A stretch of DNA of 31,491 nucleotides from Promethearchaeota archaeon (lineage in GTDB: Archaea > Asgardarchaeota > Lokiarchaeia > Sigyniarchaeales > SOKP01): positions 1 through 31,491 of the forward strand of contig SDNY01000035.1 in the NCBI GenBank assembly GCA_004524535.1, read 5' to 3'. A program made the position numbers and the translations under genes. Position 1 is the stretch's first letter; each line of letters begins with the position of its first letter. This document shows, one piece after another, positions 2,524-19,268 of this stretch. The notes beneath the pieces are model-generated. The model had not been told where the DNA came from. It ran no database searches and saw only the letters and a program-made list of their open reading frames with translations.

Positions 2524-4719
2524 ATGGTTAAAAATAAAGGTTTAATAAACCGGGAAGAAATCACACGATTATTCGGTTTAAGATCGCACTTTTTTGCTGA
2601 GATAATGCGATATCTTGAGAAGGAAGCTATTTTAAAAAAAGAAAAATTTGATGAAAAATTAAGAATGTTAAGAGGTAATATTTTTAAAGACTCGTCAGAA
2701 TTAAATTCAAATCTCTTTCTTAGGTATACATACTTTGCCTTATTATTGAAAGCACTTCTTATAATTAAGTTAAGCAACATTCAAAATTTAGATTTTGAAG
2801 AATGCTATGAAGATAATATCTCAAATAATTTAGAAGCATTGCATATATTTGAATTTGATTATTTCTTTTGGACGGATTTTAAAAAAAAAGCATTTGAACA
2901 AATTTATAATGCATTAGAATTTACAAAATTTGCTCAACAAGATTTATTCATTGATATCTATCAACAGATCTTCTTTTCCGTCACAAGACACAAGATAGGT
3001 GAATTTTACACACCATCTAATCTTGTACGATTAATAGTTGATGACTATTATGAATTAGGATCGAAGATATTAGATCCCTCATGTGGTTCAGGCAATTTCC
3101 TTATTGATATTATTCTTAAAATTATTAACTCTAAAGAAAGAAATAATTCAATAATAGATGCACTTAACAATGTTTATGGTTTTGATATTAACCCTTTAGC
3201 TGTAATGACTTCAAAAATCAATATTTTATTAATATATTTAGAATCTTTTGATGTTAGAAATGATGAGATGCCCAATCTCAATATTTTTTTACTCGATTCT
3301 TTATTTCCTGATAAATATGAGAATCAGATGTTTATCAACCTTAAGAACTTATATAATTCTTTTGATTTAATAATCGGAAATCCACCATGGTTAACATATA
3401 AAGATTTAGAGAATAAAGATTATCAAACAGAAATTCGCAACCTTGCAAGTAAACTAAAAATTAAACCCCCAAGCCAATATATAACTCATATAGAATTAGC
3501 TACTATCTTTTTTTATCAAATACCATTAAAATTTTTAAAAATAGGAGGCAAAATCTTTTTTGTCATTACTAAAAGCGTTTTAAATGGTGACCATTGTTAT
3601 GAGTTTCGATCATTTTCTTTATTTAATAAAAACTTAGAAATTTGGGATTTTCCTGATAATTATTTTTTCAATATACATCATGTTTGTTTAAAAGCGGAAT
3701 ATATTGGTGAAAATGATATCCCCCTAGAAGAGAAATATCCAATTAAAGCAAAAATATTTGATAAAGATTTAGAACTCCAAGAAGAGACTTATTATTCTAC
3801 CATAAAGTTAGAACAAAAGGGAGCAAAAATAATTATTCCAGTTAATCAACTAGAAATCCTTAGTAAAGTTTCTTATAGTAAGTATAAGGATAAGTTTTTC
3901 CAAGGTGCAACACTAGTCCCAAGAACGCTTGTTTTTTTTAAAATTGAAAAAAAAAAAAATAATCTTTTATTGATTTCTACAGATCGCGATATACTTTCGC
4001 GAGCAAAAAAAAAATGGAATTATTATTTTCAAAATAAAGAAATTGAGGTAAAATTTCATTTTAAAACGTTTTTAAATAGAGATTTAATCCCTTTTTTTTT
4101 AAAAAAGACTAGAAATGTTTTTCTGCCGGTTAATGATAATCTCGAATTCGATTCGGAATATCTTAATCAAAACCTAAAAGCAATTAGTTTTTATAAAGAA
4201 ATAAACGAATTTTATTGTAAAAACAAAAAGAAAACAAGCGATATTGATTCAATATTTTTAAATTTAAATTATTGGAATAAATTAACTAAACAGAATCAAA
4301 ATAAAAACTACTTGGTTATCTATAATGCAAGTGGCTCGAATTTAAAAGCAGCTGTTATAAATAATCGGGAACAAAGAATTATTGTAAGTTCCGAGAATTA
4401 TTATTATTCTACTGATTCTAAAGATGAAGCCTATTATTTATCCGCAATTTTAAATTCACCTATTTTATCGAAAAATATTAAACTTATTAAAAGTTCAAGG
4501 CATATACATAAAAGACCTTTTTCATTCCCAATACCTATATATAACGAATCTAATAAACATAAAGAATTGGCTAGACAGGCAATTAAATGCGAAACAATTG
4601 CTCAAGATCTTTTTATGAAAAATCCTAACATAAATACAATCAAACTTAATATAATTATCAATCATAAATTGAAAAAAATTAACAAATTAGTCGAACAAAT
4701 CGTGTTTAAAAGAAATTAA
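2524..4719 (+). CDS. N6-adenine DNA methyltransferase (Eco57I/type IIG-like MTase with C-terminal target-recognition region)
   Basis: GEFYTP, LDPSCGSGNF (SAM binding), GFDINPLAV, IIGNPPW (catalytic), YYLSAILNS-type C-terminal region. Confidence 0.85.
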   Translation: MVKNKGLINREEITRLFGLRSHFFAEIMRYLEKEAILKKEKFDEKLRMLRGNIFKDSSELNSNLFLRYTYFALLLKALLIIKLSNIQNLDFEECYEDNISNNLEALHIFEFDYFFWTDFKKKAFEQIYNALEFTKFAQQDLFIDIYQQIFFSVTRHKIGEFYTPSNLVRLIVDDYYELGSKILDPSCGSGNFLIDIILKIINSKERNNSIIDALNNVYGFDINPLAVMTSKINILLIYLESFDVRNDEMPNLNIFLLDSLFPDKYENQMFINLKNLYNSFDLIIGNPPWLTYKDLENKDYQTEIRNLASKLKIKPPSQYITHIELATIFFYQIPLKFLKIGGKIFFVITKSVLNGDHCYEFRSFSLFNKNLEIWDFPDNYFFNIHHVCLKAEYIGENDIPLEEKYPIKAKIFDKDLELQEETYYSTIKLEQKGAKIIIPVNQLEILSKVSYSKYKDKFFQGATLVPRTLVFFKIEKKKNNLLLISTDRDILSRAKKKWNYYFQNKEIEVKFHFKTFLNRDLIPFFLKKTRNVFLPVNDNLEFDSEYLNQNLKAISFYKEINEFYCKNKKKTSDIDSIFLNLNYWNKLTKQNQNKNYLVIYNASGSNLKAAVINNREQRIIVSSENYYYSTDSKDEAYYLSAILNSPILSKNIKLIKSSRHIHKRPFSFPIPIYNESNKHKELARQAIKCETIAQDLFMKNPNINTIKLNIIINHKLKKINKLVEQIVFKRN

Positions 4720-5884: not shown

Positions 5885-5994
5885 ACAAATTTTTAAATTA
5901 CATGAGTTTCTATGATTTAATATTAGTTAATTATTATTACTGAAATAATTAGTAAATTGGTATTATAAAATGTTAAAAAAAGTTAAAAAGCATT

Positions 5995-6001
5995 GGAGGT
6001 G
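5995..6001 (+). promoter_or_regulatory. Shine-Dalgarno site of the GTPase gene
   Basis: GGAGGTG lies 8 nt before TTG 6010 and only 2 nt before TTG 6004, so 6010 may be the true start; TATA-like TATTATAAAA at 5961-5970. Confidence 0.7.
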
Positions 6002-6003
6002 GA

Positions 6004-6690
6004 TTGAGATTGCCCTCCCGTAGAGGAGATGGAACTCTTGTATTCAAGATTTGCTTCTATGGGCCAAGTTTGGGGGGTAAGACAACTGCACTTGAATGGG
6101 TTTATAATCGGGAAGGTTTAGCTTCTGGAGACATGCAACAGATACAAGACCCGACTGGAAGGACATTGTTCTTCGATCGAGTCGTTGCTCGCGTATCGAA
6201 TGTAGTATTCCAATAAATTGAAGATCTCCTTCAGTGAGGAGAAGTCTACACTGTTGCTGGTCAGCGAAGACATAAATTCCAGCGCCAAACCGTTCTTAAA
6301 GGGACAGATGCTTGTATTTTCACGTGGGACTCGCTCATCGATCAAACACAGCTAACTTATGTTGCTGTGGGTTAATGGGGCGAGAACATCTGGTCTCTTA
6401 AGGAACTACTTAAATTTTATGGCGATAAATTAGTCCCTGCAAGTGCCCAGGATCCAACCCCAGAAGTTCCATTAGTACTATTAGCCAATAAGCGTGATTT
6501 AGACGATATCGTGGAGATTTCCAAGATTAGAAATGTGCTCGATACCGCAAAGCTTAACCATTGTCTCATCTACGAGACAATTGCAATCACAGGTATAAAC
6601 GTCAAACGTGCCTTCGTTTATGCGGCTAGGCAAGCGGTCTTGAACCACTACAAAAAGCTTTCCGGAAAATCAATGGAAAGTGCCACCTAA
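6004..6690 (+). CDS. MglA-like (Ras/Arf superfamily) small GTPase in three exons: join(6004..6213,6244..6345,6376..6690), 208 aa
   Basis: All three segments are in one frame. G1 GPSLGGKTT, G2 RTLFFD, G3 VYTVAGQ, then VLKGTDACIFTWDS, G4 LANKRD, G5 ETIAITGINV. Removing two 30-nt inserts gives VVFQ|VYTVAGQ and DSLIDQ|WGENIWSL, colinear with MglA. Confidence 0.92.
6214..6243 (+). other. Putative BHB mRNA intron 1 of the GTPase (30 nt)
   Basis: TAAATTGAAGATCTCCTTCAGTGAGGAGAA, in-frame TAA and TGA. Central helix UUCC(6208-11)/GGAG(6238-41), bulges AA^U and AA^G, exon helix UGUAG/CUACA, intron stem AUUGAAG/CUUCAGU. Confidence 0.85.
6346..6375 (+). other. Putative BHB mRNA intron 2 of the GTPase (30 nt)
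   Basis: ACACAGCTAACTTATGTTGCTGTGGGTTAA, in-frame TAA. Central helix GAUC(6340-43)/GGUU(6370-73), bulges AA^A and AA^U, intron stem CACAGC/GCUGUG plus AAC/GUU, exon helix CUCGCUC/GGGCGAG. Confidence 0.88.
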
Positions 6691-6866
6691 AAAATCTTCT
6701 TAATTTTTTCTTCATTTCAGATAATCTCAGACAATTATAACTTTTTTAATATTTCCTTAAAATTTTTATTGCTTTTAATCGTTATTAGACCTTTTTGTAA
6801 AACCATAAATTTAAAAATAACTTTTTTTATCAAAATTTAACAGAAAAAAAATATTTTTATCAAATA

Positions 6867-10380: not shown

Positions 10381-12387
10381 TCATAAACTTTTTGTTTCAC
10401 TATAGTGCTCAACGATAAACTTTTTTCTCGGTGTGACATCTTTGCCCATTAATTTTGAGAAAAGAATATCGTTATCTAAATAATTTTCGTATATAATCTT
10501 TTTAAGCGTACGGGTTTCCCGATTCATTGTTGTGTTGTAGAGTTCTTCAGGATTCATCTCTCCAAGACCCTTAAACCGTTTTATTTTAATTTTGTTAGTA
10601 TTTTCTATGTTATACTTTTTTATTAGGGTTTTTATTATTTCTTGTCTTTCAATTTCACTATGGCAGTAATGTATTGATTTTTTATATTTTGTTTGGTATA
10701 ATGGAGGATTTCCTATATATAAATGGCCTTTATCAATAAGAGGGCGCATGTATCTAAAAAAAAAAGTGAGCAATAAAGTCTGAATATGAAATCCGTCAAT
10801 GTCTGAATCACAGAGTATGATTACACGATGGTATCTCAAATTTTCAAGGCTGAATTCCTCATTGCTTACACCTTGAACGCCAACACCTAATGCTCTAATT
10901 ATCGCTTGAATCTCGTTATTTTGTAAGATTTTATCCAATCTTGCTTTTTCAACATTTAGAATTTTGCCCCTAAGTGGCAAAATAGCTTGATAAGTTCTAT
11001 CTCTTCCTTGTTTTGCGGAACCCCCCGCAGAATCCCCCTCAACAATAAAGACTTCGCATTCTTCGGGTTCATTGGAAGAACAATCAGCCAGTTTCCCCGG
11101 CATTCTCGCATTGTCCAATGCAGACTTTCTCCGTATTAATAATTTTGCATTTTGTGCTGCTTCTCGAGCATTTTTAGCACTTATTGTTTTCATGATAATT
11201 TTTTTCGCAGTTTGAGGATTTTCTTCAAGGTATTGTGCTAAATTTTCTGTAATTGCTTGACTAACAATTTGCCTTATCTCTGGATTTCCAAGTTTAATTT
11301 TTGTTTGGCTTTCAAACTGAGGATCTGGGAGTTTAACAGATACTATTGCCGATAATCCTTCCCTGGTATCGCTTCCACTTAAAACATGGTCTTTATATTT
11401 CTTTTCCATATTTTTTTCGATATAAGAGTTCATTGTCCTTGTAAGTGCTGATTTAAACCCGGTAAGATGCGTGCCACCTTCCAAGGTATTTATGGTATTA
11501 GCGTATGTAAGAATTGTAGTCTGATAACCTTGGTTATATTGCATTGCTATATCAACGTATACTTTTGAACCATTTGAATCATAAGAATCGCTAATAGAAA
11601 TAATATCATTATGGAGTGGTTGTTTATCCTTATTTAAATACCCAATAAATTCATTAATACCCCCCTCATAATAAAACTCTTCTTCATCTTCATCAATTTT
11701 ATCTTTTACTTCAAACTTTGCTTGAGGTGTGAGAAAAGCTAGTTCTCTTATGCGAGCGACAATTGTATGATAGTTAAATATTCTTTCTTCTGGATTAAAA
11801 TCAAAAATCTCCTTATCAGGATAAAAAGATATTTTTGTTCCAGTATCTTTACTATTTGATTTTGTAATTTTAGGATCGCTTTTCTTTATACCTCTAGAGA
11901 ATTCCTGTTCATAATGAGTATCATCTCGATCTATCTCAACTTTTAACCATTCAGTTAATGCATTAACAACTGAAAGACCTACACCATGTAAACCCCCAGA
12001 TATTTTATAACTTTTATTATCGAACTTACCACCTGAATGTAAATATTCCATAATAACTTCTACAGCTGGTTTACCATATTCTGGATGATTATCAATAGGA
12101 ATTCCTCTTCCATTATCAGAAATTTTAACGGAATTATCTGTATTAAATGTAACTCTTATATGATCAGCAAAACCCGCTAAAGCTTCATCGACTGAGTTGT
12201 CTAACACTTCAAAAACAAGATGATGAAGCCCCTTCTTACCAGTATCGCCGATATACATAGCGGGGCGTCTTCTTTAGCGACTATCATGAGATATGATTTA
12301 GTTTACGCCTTCTAGCCCCTTTAATACCTGTATATCGCCTGCGTCATAATCCTGTTCTTCTGAATCAAGGTTCTTTTTCACAGGCAT
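10381..12387 (-). CDS. gyrB: DNA gyrase subunit B in two exons: complement(join(10381..12273,12304..12387)), 658 aa
   Basis: EVLDNSVDE, DNGRGIP, GGLHGVG, EGDSAGGSA, PLRGKILNV, DSDIDG, RFKGLGEM. The ORF track starts at MYIG, but the conserved N-terminus MPVKKNLDSEEQDYDAGDIQVLKGLEGV lies upstream in frame, separated from RRRPAMYIG by a 30-nt insert. Confidence 0.95.
12274..12303 (-). other. Putative BHB mRNA intron of gyrB (30 nt)
   Basis: Sense strand AACTAAATCATATCTCATGATAGTCGCTAA, two in-frame TAA. Central helix GGCG/CGCU, bulges UA^A and AA^A, intron stem ACU-AA-AUCAU/AUGAU-AGU, distal exon helix GGGGC/GCCCC. Confidence 0.88.
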
Positions 12388-18711: not shown

Positions 18712-19065
18712 TCAGAGAACTTTTCCTATGGCGCTAGATGCCGCTTGCAACTTTAAATTGATGATTCCAAGCTTTGCATCAGTAGTCGTTATAACCGTTA
18801 TGATATTACCTTCAATTTCGGAAAACAGTATTTTGCCTTTTTCACTTTCGATAATAGCATCTTTAAAAGTGCCTTGTTCTAATTCTTTAGTTGCTCGTTG
18901 AGAGGCTTTGAGGATCAAGGTTACCATTGCTGCAACAGCTTCTGGATCTACCCAGCCGGGTAAAGCGCTACCTTTAATTAGACCAAATTTTTCGATTAAA
19001 GCAGCACCATGGACACCTTTGATAGCTTTAAGCGAATCCAAAATTTCAGTTATTTTTTCACTCAT
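18712..19065 (-). CDS. Roadblock/LC7 (MglB-like) protein
   Basis: ILDSLKAIKGVHGAALIEKFGLI, AVAAMV, ASQRATKELEQG, IIESEKGKIL, AKLGII; ATG at 19065 preferred over TTG at 19074. Confidence 0.88.
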   Translation of the reverse strand: MSEKITEILDSLKAIKGVHGAALIEKFGLIKGSALPGWVDPEAVAAMVTLILKASQRATKELEQGTFKDAIIESEKGKILFSEIEGNIITVITTTDAKLGIINLKLQAASSAIGKVL

Positions 19066-19268
19066 TGAAATCAATTTATATTATATTTTGAGGAATAATA
19101 ATTCTATAATTATTAAGTAAGATTTAATAATATTTAAGTCTAAAAAGTTTCTAAATTTAACGATATTCCTTAGATATGTTAGACATAATAATAAATAATT
19201 TAATTATATTATTTATAATAATCTAAAAATAATAATTTAAAATTTAATTTGGAAGTGATATCACAGAA

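Follow-up and report, generated by a model that had tools for sequence, protein, structure and literature searches.

A probable bulge-helix-bulge mini-intron in the MglA-like GTPase gene of a Lokiarchaeia-type Asgard archaeon

Introduction

How can a gene that is interrupted by three in-frame stop codons encode a conserved small GTPase? The question is raised by an MglA-like small GTPase gene at positions 6010-6690 (plus strand) of a 31,491-nucleotide (nt) stretch of archaeal DNA (contig SDNY01000035.1 of assembly GCA_004524535.1), here called the window, in which the reading frame is broken by TAA at 6214, TGA at 6235 and TAA at 6373. The window corresponds to C104, one of the 198 contigs that make up a 3.66-Mb, 99%-complete genome (G000), and the host organism is a Lokiarchaeia-type Asgard archaeon. 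The first two stops lie in an insert of 30 nt, 6214-6243, which, judging from its sequence and from that of its relatives, is probably a bulge-helix-bulge (BHB) mini-intron in an Asgard mRNA; it is called intron 1 below, and a second insert in the same gene, 6346-6375, intron 2.

MglA-family proteins are characterized by a P-loop of the form GxxxxGK[ST], a G3 motif in which Thr replaces Asp (TxxGQ), and NKxD. All three are found in the translation of the interrupted gene, as GPSLGGKT, TVAGQ and NKRD. The best solved relatives of an intron-less ortholog are MglA proteins (3T12, E 2.6e-20), FHLYTVPGQ being aligned to FQVYTVAGQ, and its Pfam matches are Arf (1.7e-8, residues 13-181) and Ras (2.2e-6). 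No second ortholog is found within the 99%-complete genome, where the next match is only 39% identical.

An earlier note on this DNA had described the insert as opening with TAA, splitting VVFQ from VYTVAGQ just before the G3/switch II motif, and leaving an unspliced RNA that encodes about 70 amino acids with the P-loop. This description holds: the frame around intron 1 translates as VVFQ-stop-IEDLLQ-stop-GEVYTVAGQ, the insert lies three codons ahead of the T in TVAGQ (aligned with TVPGQ of MglA), and the unspliced product counts 68 amino acids from the TTG at 6010, or 70 from the TTG at 6004. The note's reading of the insert as an intron is favoured by a gap in orthologs, by cuts that restore the conserved peptide, by compensatory changes in a sister genome (G007), by silent differences between strains, and by the presence of EndA and RtcB genes.

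An insert missing from the orthologs

Forty related genomes were searched in six frames, 20 loci were translated and 16 sequences were aligned at the DNA level. An ortholog is present in 31 of the 40 genomes (best E 1e-69 or lower). In 15 of the 15 DNA-aligned orthologs an exact 30-column gap is found at 6214-6243, giving the continuous peptide VVFQ^VYTVAGQ (carets mark junctions or cuts), and the same holds for an exact 30-column gap at 6346-6375. The ten-codon gap at the first site had been named beforehand, in the earlier note, as a check on its proposal. In nine further orthologs, for which tabulated data only were used, internal stops are absent and the lengths agree with the absence of an insert. 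Among the related genomes searched, an insert at the intron-1 site occurs only in G000 and in G007, a member of the same genus.

No other copy of intron 1 was found in the genome, the best other match being 16 nt long (E 0.013), so that it is not a repeated element at the sequence level. An Rfam search of the window returned 0 matches.

Bulge-helix-bulge geometry of the two introns

Every BHB element that the earlier note had listed around the insert is present as it was described there (Table 1). The central helix UUCC/GGAG is paired at 4/4 positions, one of them G-U, and with its two 3-nt bulges it makes up a BHB. The exon stem is formed by 6201-6205 with 6246-6250, plus A6207-U6245, and the mismatches A6215/A6237 and A6216/G6236 separate the intron hairpin h' from the bulge and from the central helix H. 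In a canonical BHB, a geometry known from the tRNA literature, the cut falls after the second bulge base; symmetric cuts at this place excise 6214-6243 and give VVFQVYTV, as in 15/15 aligned orthologs. The same product, TTCCAA^GTC, results from cuts at 6211^6212, 6212^6213 or 6213^6214 when each is combined with its 3' counterpart. Intron 2, with GAUC/GGUU as H, AAA and AAU as bulges and an intron stem of 6 base pairs (bp), has the strict hBHBh' form (outer helix, bulge, central helix, bulge, intron hairpin).

Table 1. Features of the interrupted GTPase gene and of the predicted BHB motif around intron 1 (positions in the window).
Feature	Positions	Strand	Description
Exon 1, ending in VVFQ	6010-6213	+	TTG start aligned with the ATG of orthologs (MPSRRGDG...), P-loop GPSLGGKT; from translation and DNA alignment
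Helix h, 5' strand (exon-exon outer helix)	6201-6207	+	UGUAG 6201-6205, U6206 bulged, A6207
Central helix H, exon strand UUCC	6208-6211	+	paired with GGAG 6238-6241
5' bulge AA^U (A6212 A6213 U6214)	6212-6214	+	predicted 5' cleavage site, from geometry
Intron 1	6214-6243	+	30 nt; TAA at 6214-6216, TGA at 6235-6237
Intron hairpin h'	6217-6235	+	7 bp (6217-6223 with 6229-6235), loop AUCUC
Competing hairpin	6225-6242	+	UCUCCU 6225-6230 with AGGAGA 6237-6242, 6 bp; -7.4 kcal/mol on its own
Central helix H, intron strand GGAG	6238-6241	+	paired with UUCC 6208-6211
3' bulge AA^G (A6242 A6243 G6244)	6242-6244	+	predicted 3' cleavage site, from geometry
Exon 2	6244-6345	+	VYTVAGQRRHKF...DSLIDQ, holds the G3 motif TVAGQ; 6245-6250 is the 3' strand of helix h
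Intron 2	6346-6375	+	30 nt, TAA at 6373; canonical hBHBh'
Exon 3	6376-6690	+	WGENIW...NKRD...SAT, stop TAA 6688-6690

A family of inserts in one gene

Together with a near-identical strain represented by the metagenome contig L111, the orthologs contain 17 inserts of 28-45 nt at 10 sites of a 205-codon gene; these do not all count as independent, since inserts that share a site are, or may be, homologous. G007 has four of them, two at the two intron sites of the window; the other insert-bearing orthologs are those of G009, G018, G021 and G023 (three inserts) and the records L094, L102, L106 and L107. Among the best 80 loci of the genome-contig search, 6 were marked as interrupted and a seventh is missing its 5' part. 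The gene tree within the genus gave no resolution between one gain and several (supports 32-63, synonymous sites saturated).

For each insert, all cut pairs that restore the conserved 8-residue peptide were listed (1-5 per insert), and the 4 bases ending two before the 5' cut were tested for pairing with the 4 bases ending two before the 3' cut. In this canonical geometry, 4/4 central-helix pairs are found at a peptide-restoring cut in 15 of the 17 inserts. When the two strands were shifted by -3 to +3 as a control, each of the 42 off-diagonal offsets had 0-4 of 17 inserts fully paired; the diagonal offsets, which gave 8 at (+1,+1), 6 at (+2,+2) and 0-4 at the other four, do not count as independent, since an insert may permit several cuts. 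For the inserts G007_a and G023_c, the cut with the perfect helix is the same one that yields the conserved Leu. When the BHB is enforced, the fold lies at most 1.7 kcal/mol from the minimum in 11 of the 17.

At the 3' end of several of the introns GGTT precedes AA or TA, and the corresponding exon sites have GATC, GGCC or GACC ahead of AA; the bulges among the 17 inserts are A-rich. The recurrent ends may reflect an insertion-site preference or an enzyme requirement. Two orthologs show further irregularities. In G023 (contig C10, record L029) a truncated extra copy of the first 39 codons (389-505) stands about 2.5 kb upstream of the copy at 2967-3675, whose three inserts measure 28, 45 and 30 nt. 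The ortholog on contig C95 of G019 (L021 / L110) begins ...MGGKTT, its first 20 codons not being recognisable within 400 nt upstream; this could mean that the gene is damaged or rearranged, or that it holds a long intron.

Selection on the spliced frame and on RNA structure

Three in-frame stops are what would be expected if the insert were a scar in a pseudogene or an artefact of assembly, and the RNA-library contigs of three runs, which leave 6164-6243 uncovered, contain no spliced RNA. The differences between strains speak otherwise. Of 618 exon positions, 19 differ between L111 and the window, and all 206 amino acids are the same; therefore, the gene is not a pseudogene, as two insert-bearing strains have diverged with no amino-acid change. 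Once its four inserts are removed, G007 has an open frame of 205 codons, of which 194-196 residues match those of intron-less members of the genus. The gene is, moreover, the only ortholog in its genome, and the same kind of insert occurs in gyrB beside an intact gyrA (see below). As for an artefact, the same insert is present in an independent metagenome contig and in RNA-library contigs.

Compensatory changes in the structures of both introns also stand against a dead gene. The site-1 insert of G007 is about two-thirds different in sequence, with its architecture retained: intron positions 4-10 and 16-22 form a 7-bp stem that closes a 5-nt loop, and the strand of the central helix occupies 25-28. 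In an alignment of intron 1 (3 rows, of which 2 are distinct), pairing is kept in 84% of cells, with 6 pairs changed on both sides, namely 5 of the 7 intron-stem pairs and the central pair C6210-G6239, which becomes U-A in G007 through a synonymous exon change (TTC>TTT) and an intron change from G to A. Six slid alignments gave 0-1 such pairs, and 6 of 500 shuffles reach the observed value. For intron 2, where 3 rows are distinct, pairing is kept in 98% of cells, with 4 pairs changed on both sides; one of them, an exon-exon pair, goes from G-C to C-G by way of the synonymous changes TCG>TCC and GGC>GGG, a double change that is hard to explain without selection on RNA structure. The dead-gene explanation is largely refuted, and an artefact or a scar is considered extremely unlikely. 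The data establish the exact insert, its geometry and its conservation with compensatory changes; they also establish that the spliced frame is under purifying selection and that the enzyme genes are present.

Proposed alternative folds of intron 1

The earlier note had gone one step further, proposing that intron 1 has two alternative folds and could act as a conformational switch: a BHB fold would alternate with a hairpin that hides the central helix (Table 1), so that splicing would gate the full-length GTPase against the 68-residue fragment. The 6-bp Watson-Crick complementarity on which this was built is real, and it overlaps the GGAG of the central helix; the fold in which it would sequester that helix has a probability of about 0.02 (0.014-0.019 for its pairs). 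For 6190-6262 the minimum free energy is -15.3 kcal/mol, the BHB-enforced fold has -14.2 kcal/mol (1.1 above the minimum), and enforcing the competing hairpin gives -12.6 kcal/mol, 2.7 above the minimum. High pair probabilities are obtained for the exon stem 6201-6205/6246-6250 (0.90-0.97) and for the intron stem (0.94-0.97), and that of A6207-U6245 is 0.018. Comparison leads to the same result: 5 of the 6 pairs of the competing hairpin are broken in the same-site insert of G007, none is changed on both sides, and slid controls are equal or better. Thus, neither two folds of comparable stability nor conservation of both folds is found, and the data imply no ligand, protein or condition that would act on a switch. 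A faint hint of constraint is given by the comparison with L111, in which intron 1 has 0 differences in 30 nt, intron 2 has 6 in 30 and the exons have the differences given above. A regulated switch is quite improbable on this evidence, the claim of two folds is not supported, and the competing hairpin is most likely incidental to the predicted BHB intron.

Splicing machinery and the proposed pathway

The host encodes both the endonuclease and the ligase that removal at a BHB would call for: there are two PF01974 (EndA) matches, scoring 108 and 71 bits, each in an open frame of about 200 amino acids, in the regions of G000:C100:31106-31336 and C84:30615-30863, and one RtcB match of 561 bits. 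Two EndA paralogs would be consistent with a two-subunit enzyme. ARAGORN finds only 12 tRNA genes in the 99%-complete genome, 8 of them with introns; one of its calls spans 3 kb and is probably false. Presumably most tRNA genes are too interrupted for detection. In the excerpted text of two sources, intron-rich, heavily interrupted tRNA genes are reported for some Asgard archaea (PMC11291895; bioRxiv 10.64898/2026.10.13.758758), and one of them gives two EndA paralogs in 44 of 60 genomes (bioRxiv 10.64898/2026.10.13.758758). The counts obtained here fit the interrupted tRNA genes of Asgard archaea.

From the sequence we infer cleavage by EndA, ligation by RtcB and splicing in the cell. The pre-mRNA would fold locally, exon 6201-6207 pairing with exon 6245-6250 and the exon UUCC (6208-6211) with the intron GGAG (6238-6241). 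Two 3-nt bulges, AAU and AAG, would be left on opposite strands, and the 7-bp hairpin of the intron would close the motif, in a relaxed form. The tRNA splicing endonuclease EndA would then cut once per bulge, and RtcB would join the exons to ...UUCCAA^GUCUAC..., restoring VVFQ^VYTVAGQ. Messages that escape splicing would meet a stop at the first codon of the intron and would yield the 68-residue P-loop fragment.

The insert could also be removed or skipped without EndA and RtcB, either by another endonuclease or by ribosomes that bypass the 30 nt, as in phage T4 gene 60. Bypassing in gene 60 is associated with a stop codon directly after the last codon, followed by a hairpin, and the insert in the GTPase gene likewise has a stop directly after the last exon codon and then a hairpin. 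The codon before the gap is CAA, however, and the one before the resumption point is GAA, a mismatch, and among the sister inserts those of 28, 29, 31 and 32 nt put the frame out of register. In 15 of 17 inserts the cut points obey BHB geometry. Both routes are together judged very unlikely, and removal at the BHB is preferred.

Two other candidates were ruled out. Stop-codon reassignment is incompatible with two different stops in one insert, with the frame-shifting sister inserts and with the length of the other open reading frames of the window under translation table 11; an intein is excluded by an insert of only 10 codons that contains stops.

Inserts in other genes

A comparable insert is found in gyrB (10381-12387, minus strand), which as called lacks its N-terminus; the upstream frame encodes ...DIQVLKGLEGV. 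The insert, 12274-12303 (minus strand), has 30 nt with two TAA stops and lies between ...GLEGV and RRRPAMYIG. Canonical BHB geometry fits, with the central helix GGCG/CGCT. When it is read through, the gene matches the GyrB profile from position 5 with 895 bits, and without the upstream frame from position 30 with 869 bits. Inserts at the same site occur in 5 of 8 members of the genus (this genome, G001, G003, G004 and G006), and none is found in G002, G005 and G007 or in the other 31 genomes with a match. All five have 4/4 central pairs, with C/U variation opposite G. An intact gyrA adjoins gyrB.

A Rab-like GTPase gene elsewhere in the genome (G000:C134:3527-4078; L030 528-1079) has a 30-nt insert with TGA and TAA between SIWD and IGGQ, that is, inside the G3 motif. 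Only 3/4 central-helix pairs are formed at the cut placed by hand, and the orthologs in five members of the genus are 30-36 nt shorter and uninterrupted. The copies of this gene in G014 and G010 contain a TAA. Sampled by domain family, internal stops interrupt 2 of the 60 Ras matches, 1 of the 21 for ABC_tran and none of the 48 Radical_SAM or 14 AAA matches, and such inserts are rare in the genome, in a sampling that is blind to frame-shifting ones. An ABC-transporter domain match at G000:C44:8900-9193 covers profile positions 1-84 only, with a TAA inside; it may be a further insert or a broken gene.

Points against the intron reading

Several results weigh against reading 6214-6243 as a BHB intron. 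The strict hBHBh' form is not found in intron 1, since one nucleotide is bulged out of h and two mismatches set h' apart, and it fits the relaxed BHB class only. The remaining two of the 17 inserts, both from G007, have 3/4 central-helix pairs, and one of them is the insert at the intron-1 site, the BHB-forced fold of which lies 5.4 kcal/mol above its minimum. The fold of 6195-6258 in the window has -13.6 kcal/mol and z = -1.27, with 16 of 200 shuffles at least as stable, so that stability alone is no argument for an intron; the evidence beyond chance comes from geometry and comparison, stability aside. The central helix has an ensemble probability of only about 0.1 in the BHB register, because a slipped register competes. 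Two distinct sequences carry the covariation of intron 1: a search of metagenome contigs for more alleles returned one, L111, with an identical intron, and G007 is therefore the sole source of the changed pairs.

Two genome-wide scans showed no excess of candidates. The first, which combined a canonical BHB with an excision fusing two open frames (exons of at least 40 codons, strict h'), gave 617 matches against 583-609 in six shifted-geometry controls, with a filter that missed the introns of the window itself; the relaxed version gave 6394 matches against 6665-6778 in eight controls. Both scans are uninformative on the prevalence of introns.

The RNA data consist of metatranscriptome contigs at least 99% identical to the gene, from three low-depth runs (X4, X6 and X7) of one study of sediment (P4). 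Contigs of X4 cover 5998-6163 and 6494-6644, and those of X7 cover 5998-6148 and 6462-6612. A 79-nt contig of X6 (6316-6393) carries intron 2 unspliced, and no spliced junction occurs among the contigs of the three runs, a negative that proves nothing where cover is missing at such depth and where a short junction contig may escape mapping. Another contig of X6 (record 10), 102 nt long, lies exactly on 6244-6345, that is, on exon 2 from first to last base. Graph assemblers end a contig at both exon borders where molecules diverge or where the RNA ends. The contig gives a weak hint of splicing, from libraries that may contain DNA and from contigs that cannot prove RNA ends.

Surroundings of the gene

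A TATA-like TTATAAAA (window 5963-5970) stands about 28-35 nt upstream of 5998, the position where the contigs of X4 and X7 begin, which is 12 nt ahead of the TTG start. A promoter at 5963-5970 and a transcript start at 5998 may be read from this, contig ends being weak evidence. A Roadblock/LC7 (MglB-like) gene is located at window 18712-19074 (minus strand), 12 kb from the MglA-like GTPase gene, and its protein could be a partner of the GTPase.

Discussion

A BHB intron in the cbf5 pre-mRNA of Crenarchaeota was reportedly described by Watanabe et al. in 2002. For this gene, which encodes a pseudouridine synthase, splicing has been demonstrated in RNA, according to the excerpted text of Yokobori et al. 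2009 (PMC2738675). The cbf5 intron resembles that proposed here in being a short, lineage-variable intervening sequence of an archaeal protein-coding gene, thought to be removed by EndA at a BHB (PMC2738675). The differences lie in the host, here an MglA-like GTPase of a Lokiarchaeia-type Asgard archaeon, and in number, with two introns in this gene, four in G007 and 10 sites across relatives. Splicing of cbf5 was seen in RNA (PMC2738675), whereas that of the GTPase gene is deduced from DNA.

In Haloferax volcanii, a BHB intron in the 5' untranslated region of HVO_1309 was confirmed in vivo and in vitro (Schwarz et al. 2020, PMC7714728), and in the excerpts of that 2020 paper cbf5 is given as the sole other mRNA BHB intron reported until then (PMC7714728). 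In both cases an mRNA is a substrate of the archaeal EndA, confirmed there and predicted here; unlike HVO_1309, where the intron sits in an untranslated leader (PMC7714728), intron 1 interrupts the reading frame within the GTPase domain. As far as this source goes, endonuclease-spliced introns in archaeal protein-coding genes are very rare (PMC7714728).

The tRNA introns of Asgard archaea (Valentin-Alvarado et al. 2024, PMC11291895; bioRxiv 10.64898/2026.10.13.758758) share with the inserts described here the superphylum, the BHB logic, many independent gains, a two-paralog EndA and shortness. In the excerpted text of these two papers, the non-canonical introns sit in tRNA genes and protein-coding hosts are not mentioned. 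No report of BHB introns in Asgard protein-coding genes, Atabeyarchaeia included, was found in the full-text literature searched, a coverage that leaves out most subscription journals and supplements. A parallel can also be drawn with the splicing of HAC1/XBP1 by IRE1 and RtcB in eukaryotes, in which, as excerpted, a short mRNA intron is cut by a protein endonuclease at stem-loops and the ends are joined by a tRNA ligase, altering the protein (PMC13149111). The endonuclease there is IRE1 and not EndA, and that splicing is regulated by stress (PMC13149111), whereas no regulation is shown here. The mechanism proposed for the GTPase gene is a known one, and what is new is the lineage, the host genes (a GTPase of the polarity type, a Rab-like GTPase and gyrB), the occurrence of several introns per gene, and ten sites that vary in presence and absence among close relatives.

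A broader idea, which at present must be regarded as doubtful, is that Lokiarchaeia-type Asgard archaea harbor a turnover-prone population of BHB mini-introns of about 30 nt in coding genes, gained and precisely lost at the RNA/cDNA level, the removal of which would compete with translation. The MglA-like GTPase (10 sites across relatives), the Rab-like GTPase and gyrB may be examples of it. If the idea is true, introns would arise preferentially where the exon can provide one half of the motif (GATC/GGCC/GACC + AA with GGTT + AA), the expression of polarity GTPases and of gyrase could come under the control of splicing, and intron-bearing mRNAs, together with a conflict between splicing and translation, would already be present in archaeal relatives of eukaryotes.

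Gene callers will annotate genes of this kind as fragments or pseudogenes. The present example, a conserved regulatory GTPase with two interruptions, comes from the group of archaea that is closest to eukaryotes. Should splicing be borne out, the gene would provide a handle on how ribosomes are kept off unspliced mRNA in a cell that has no nucleus, on the gain and clean loss of introns, and on the substrate range of the Asgard EndA.

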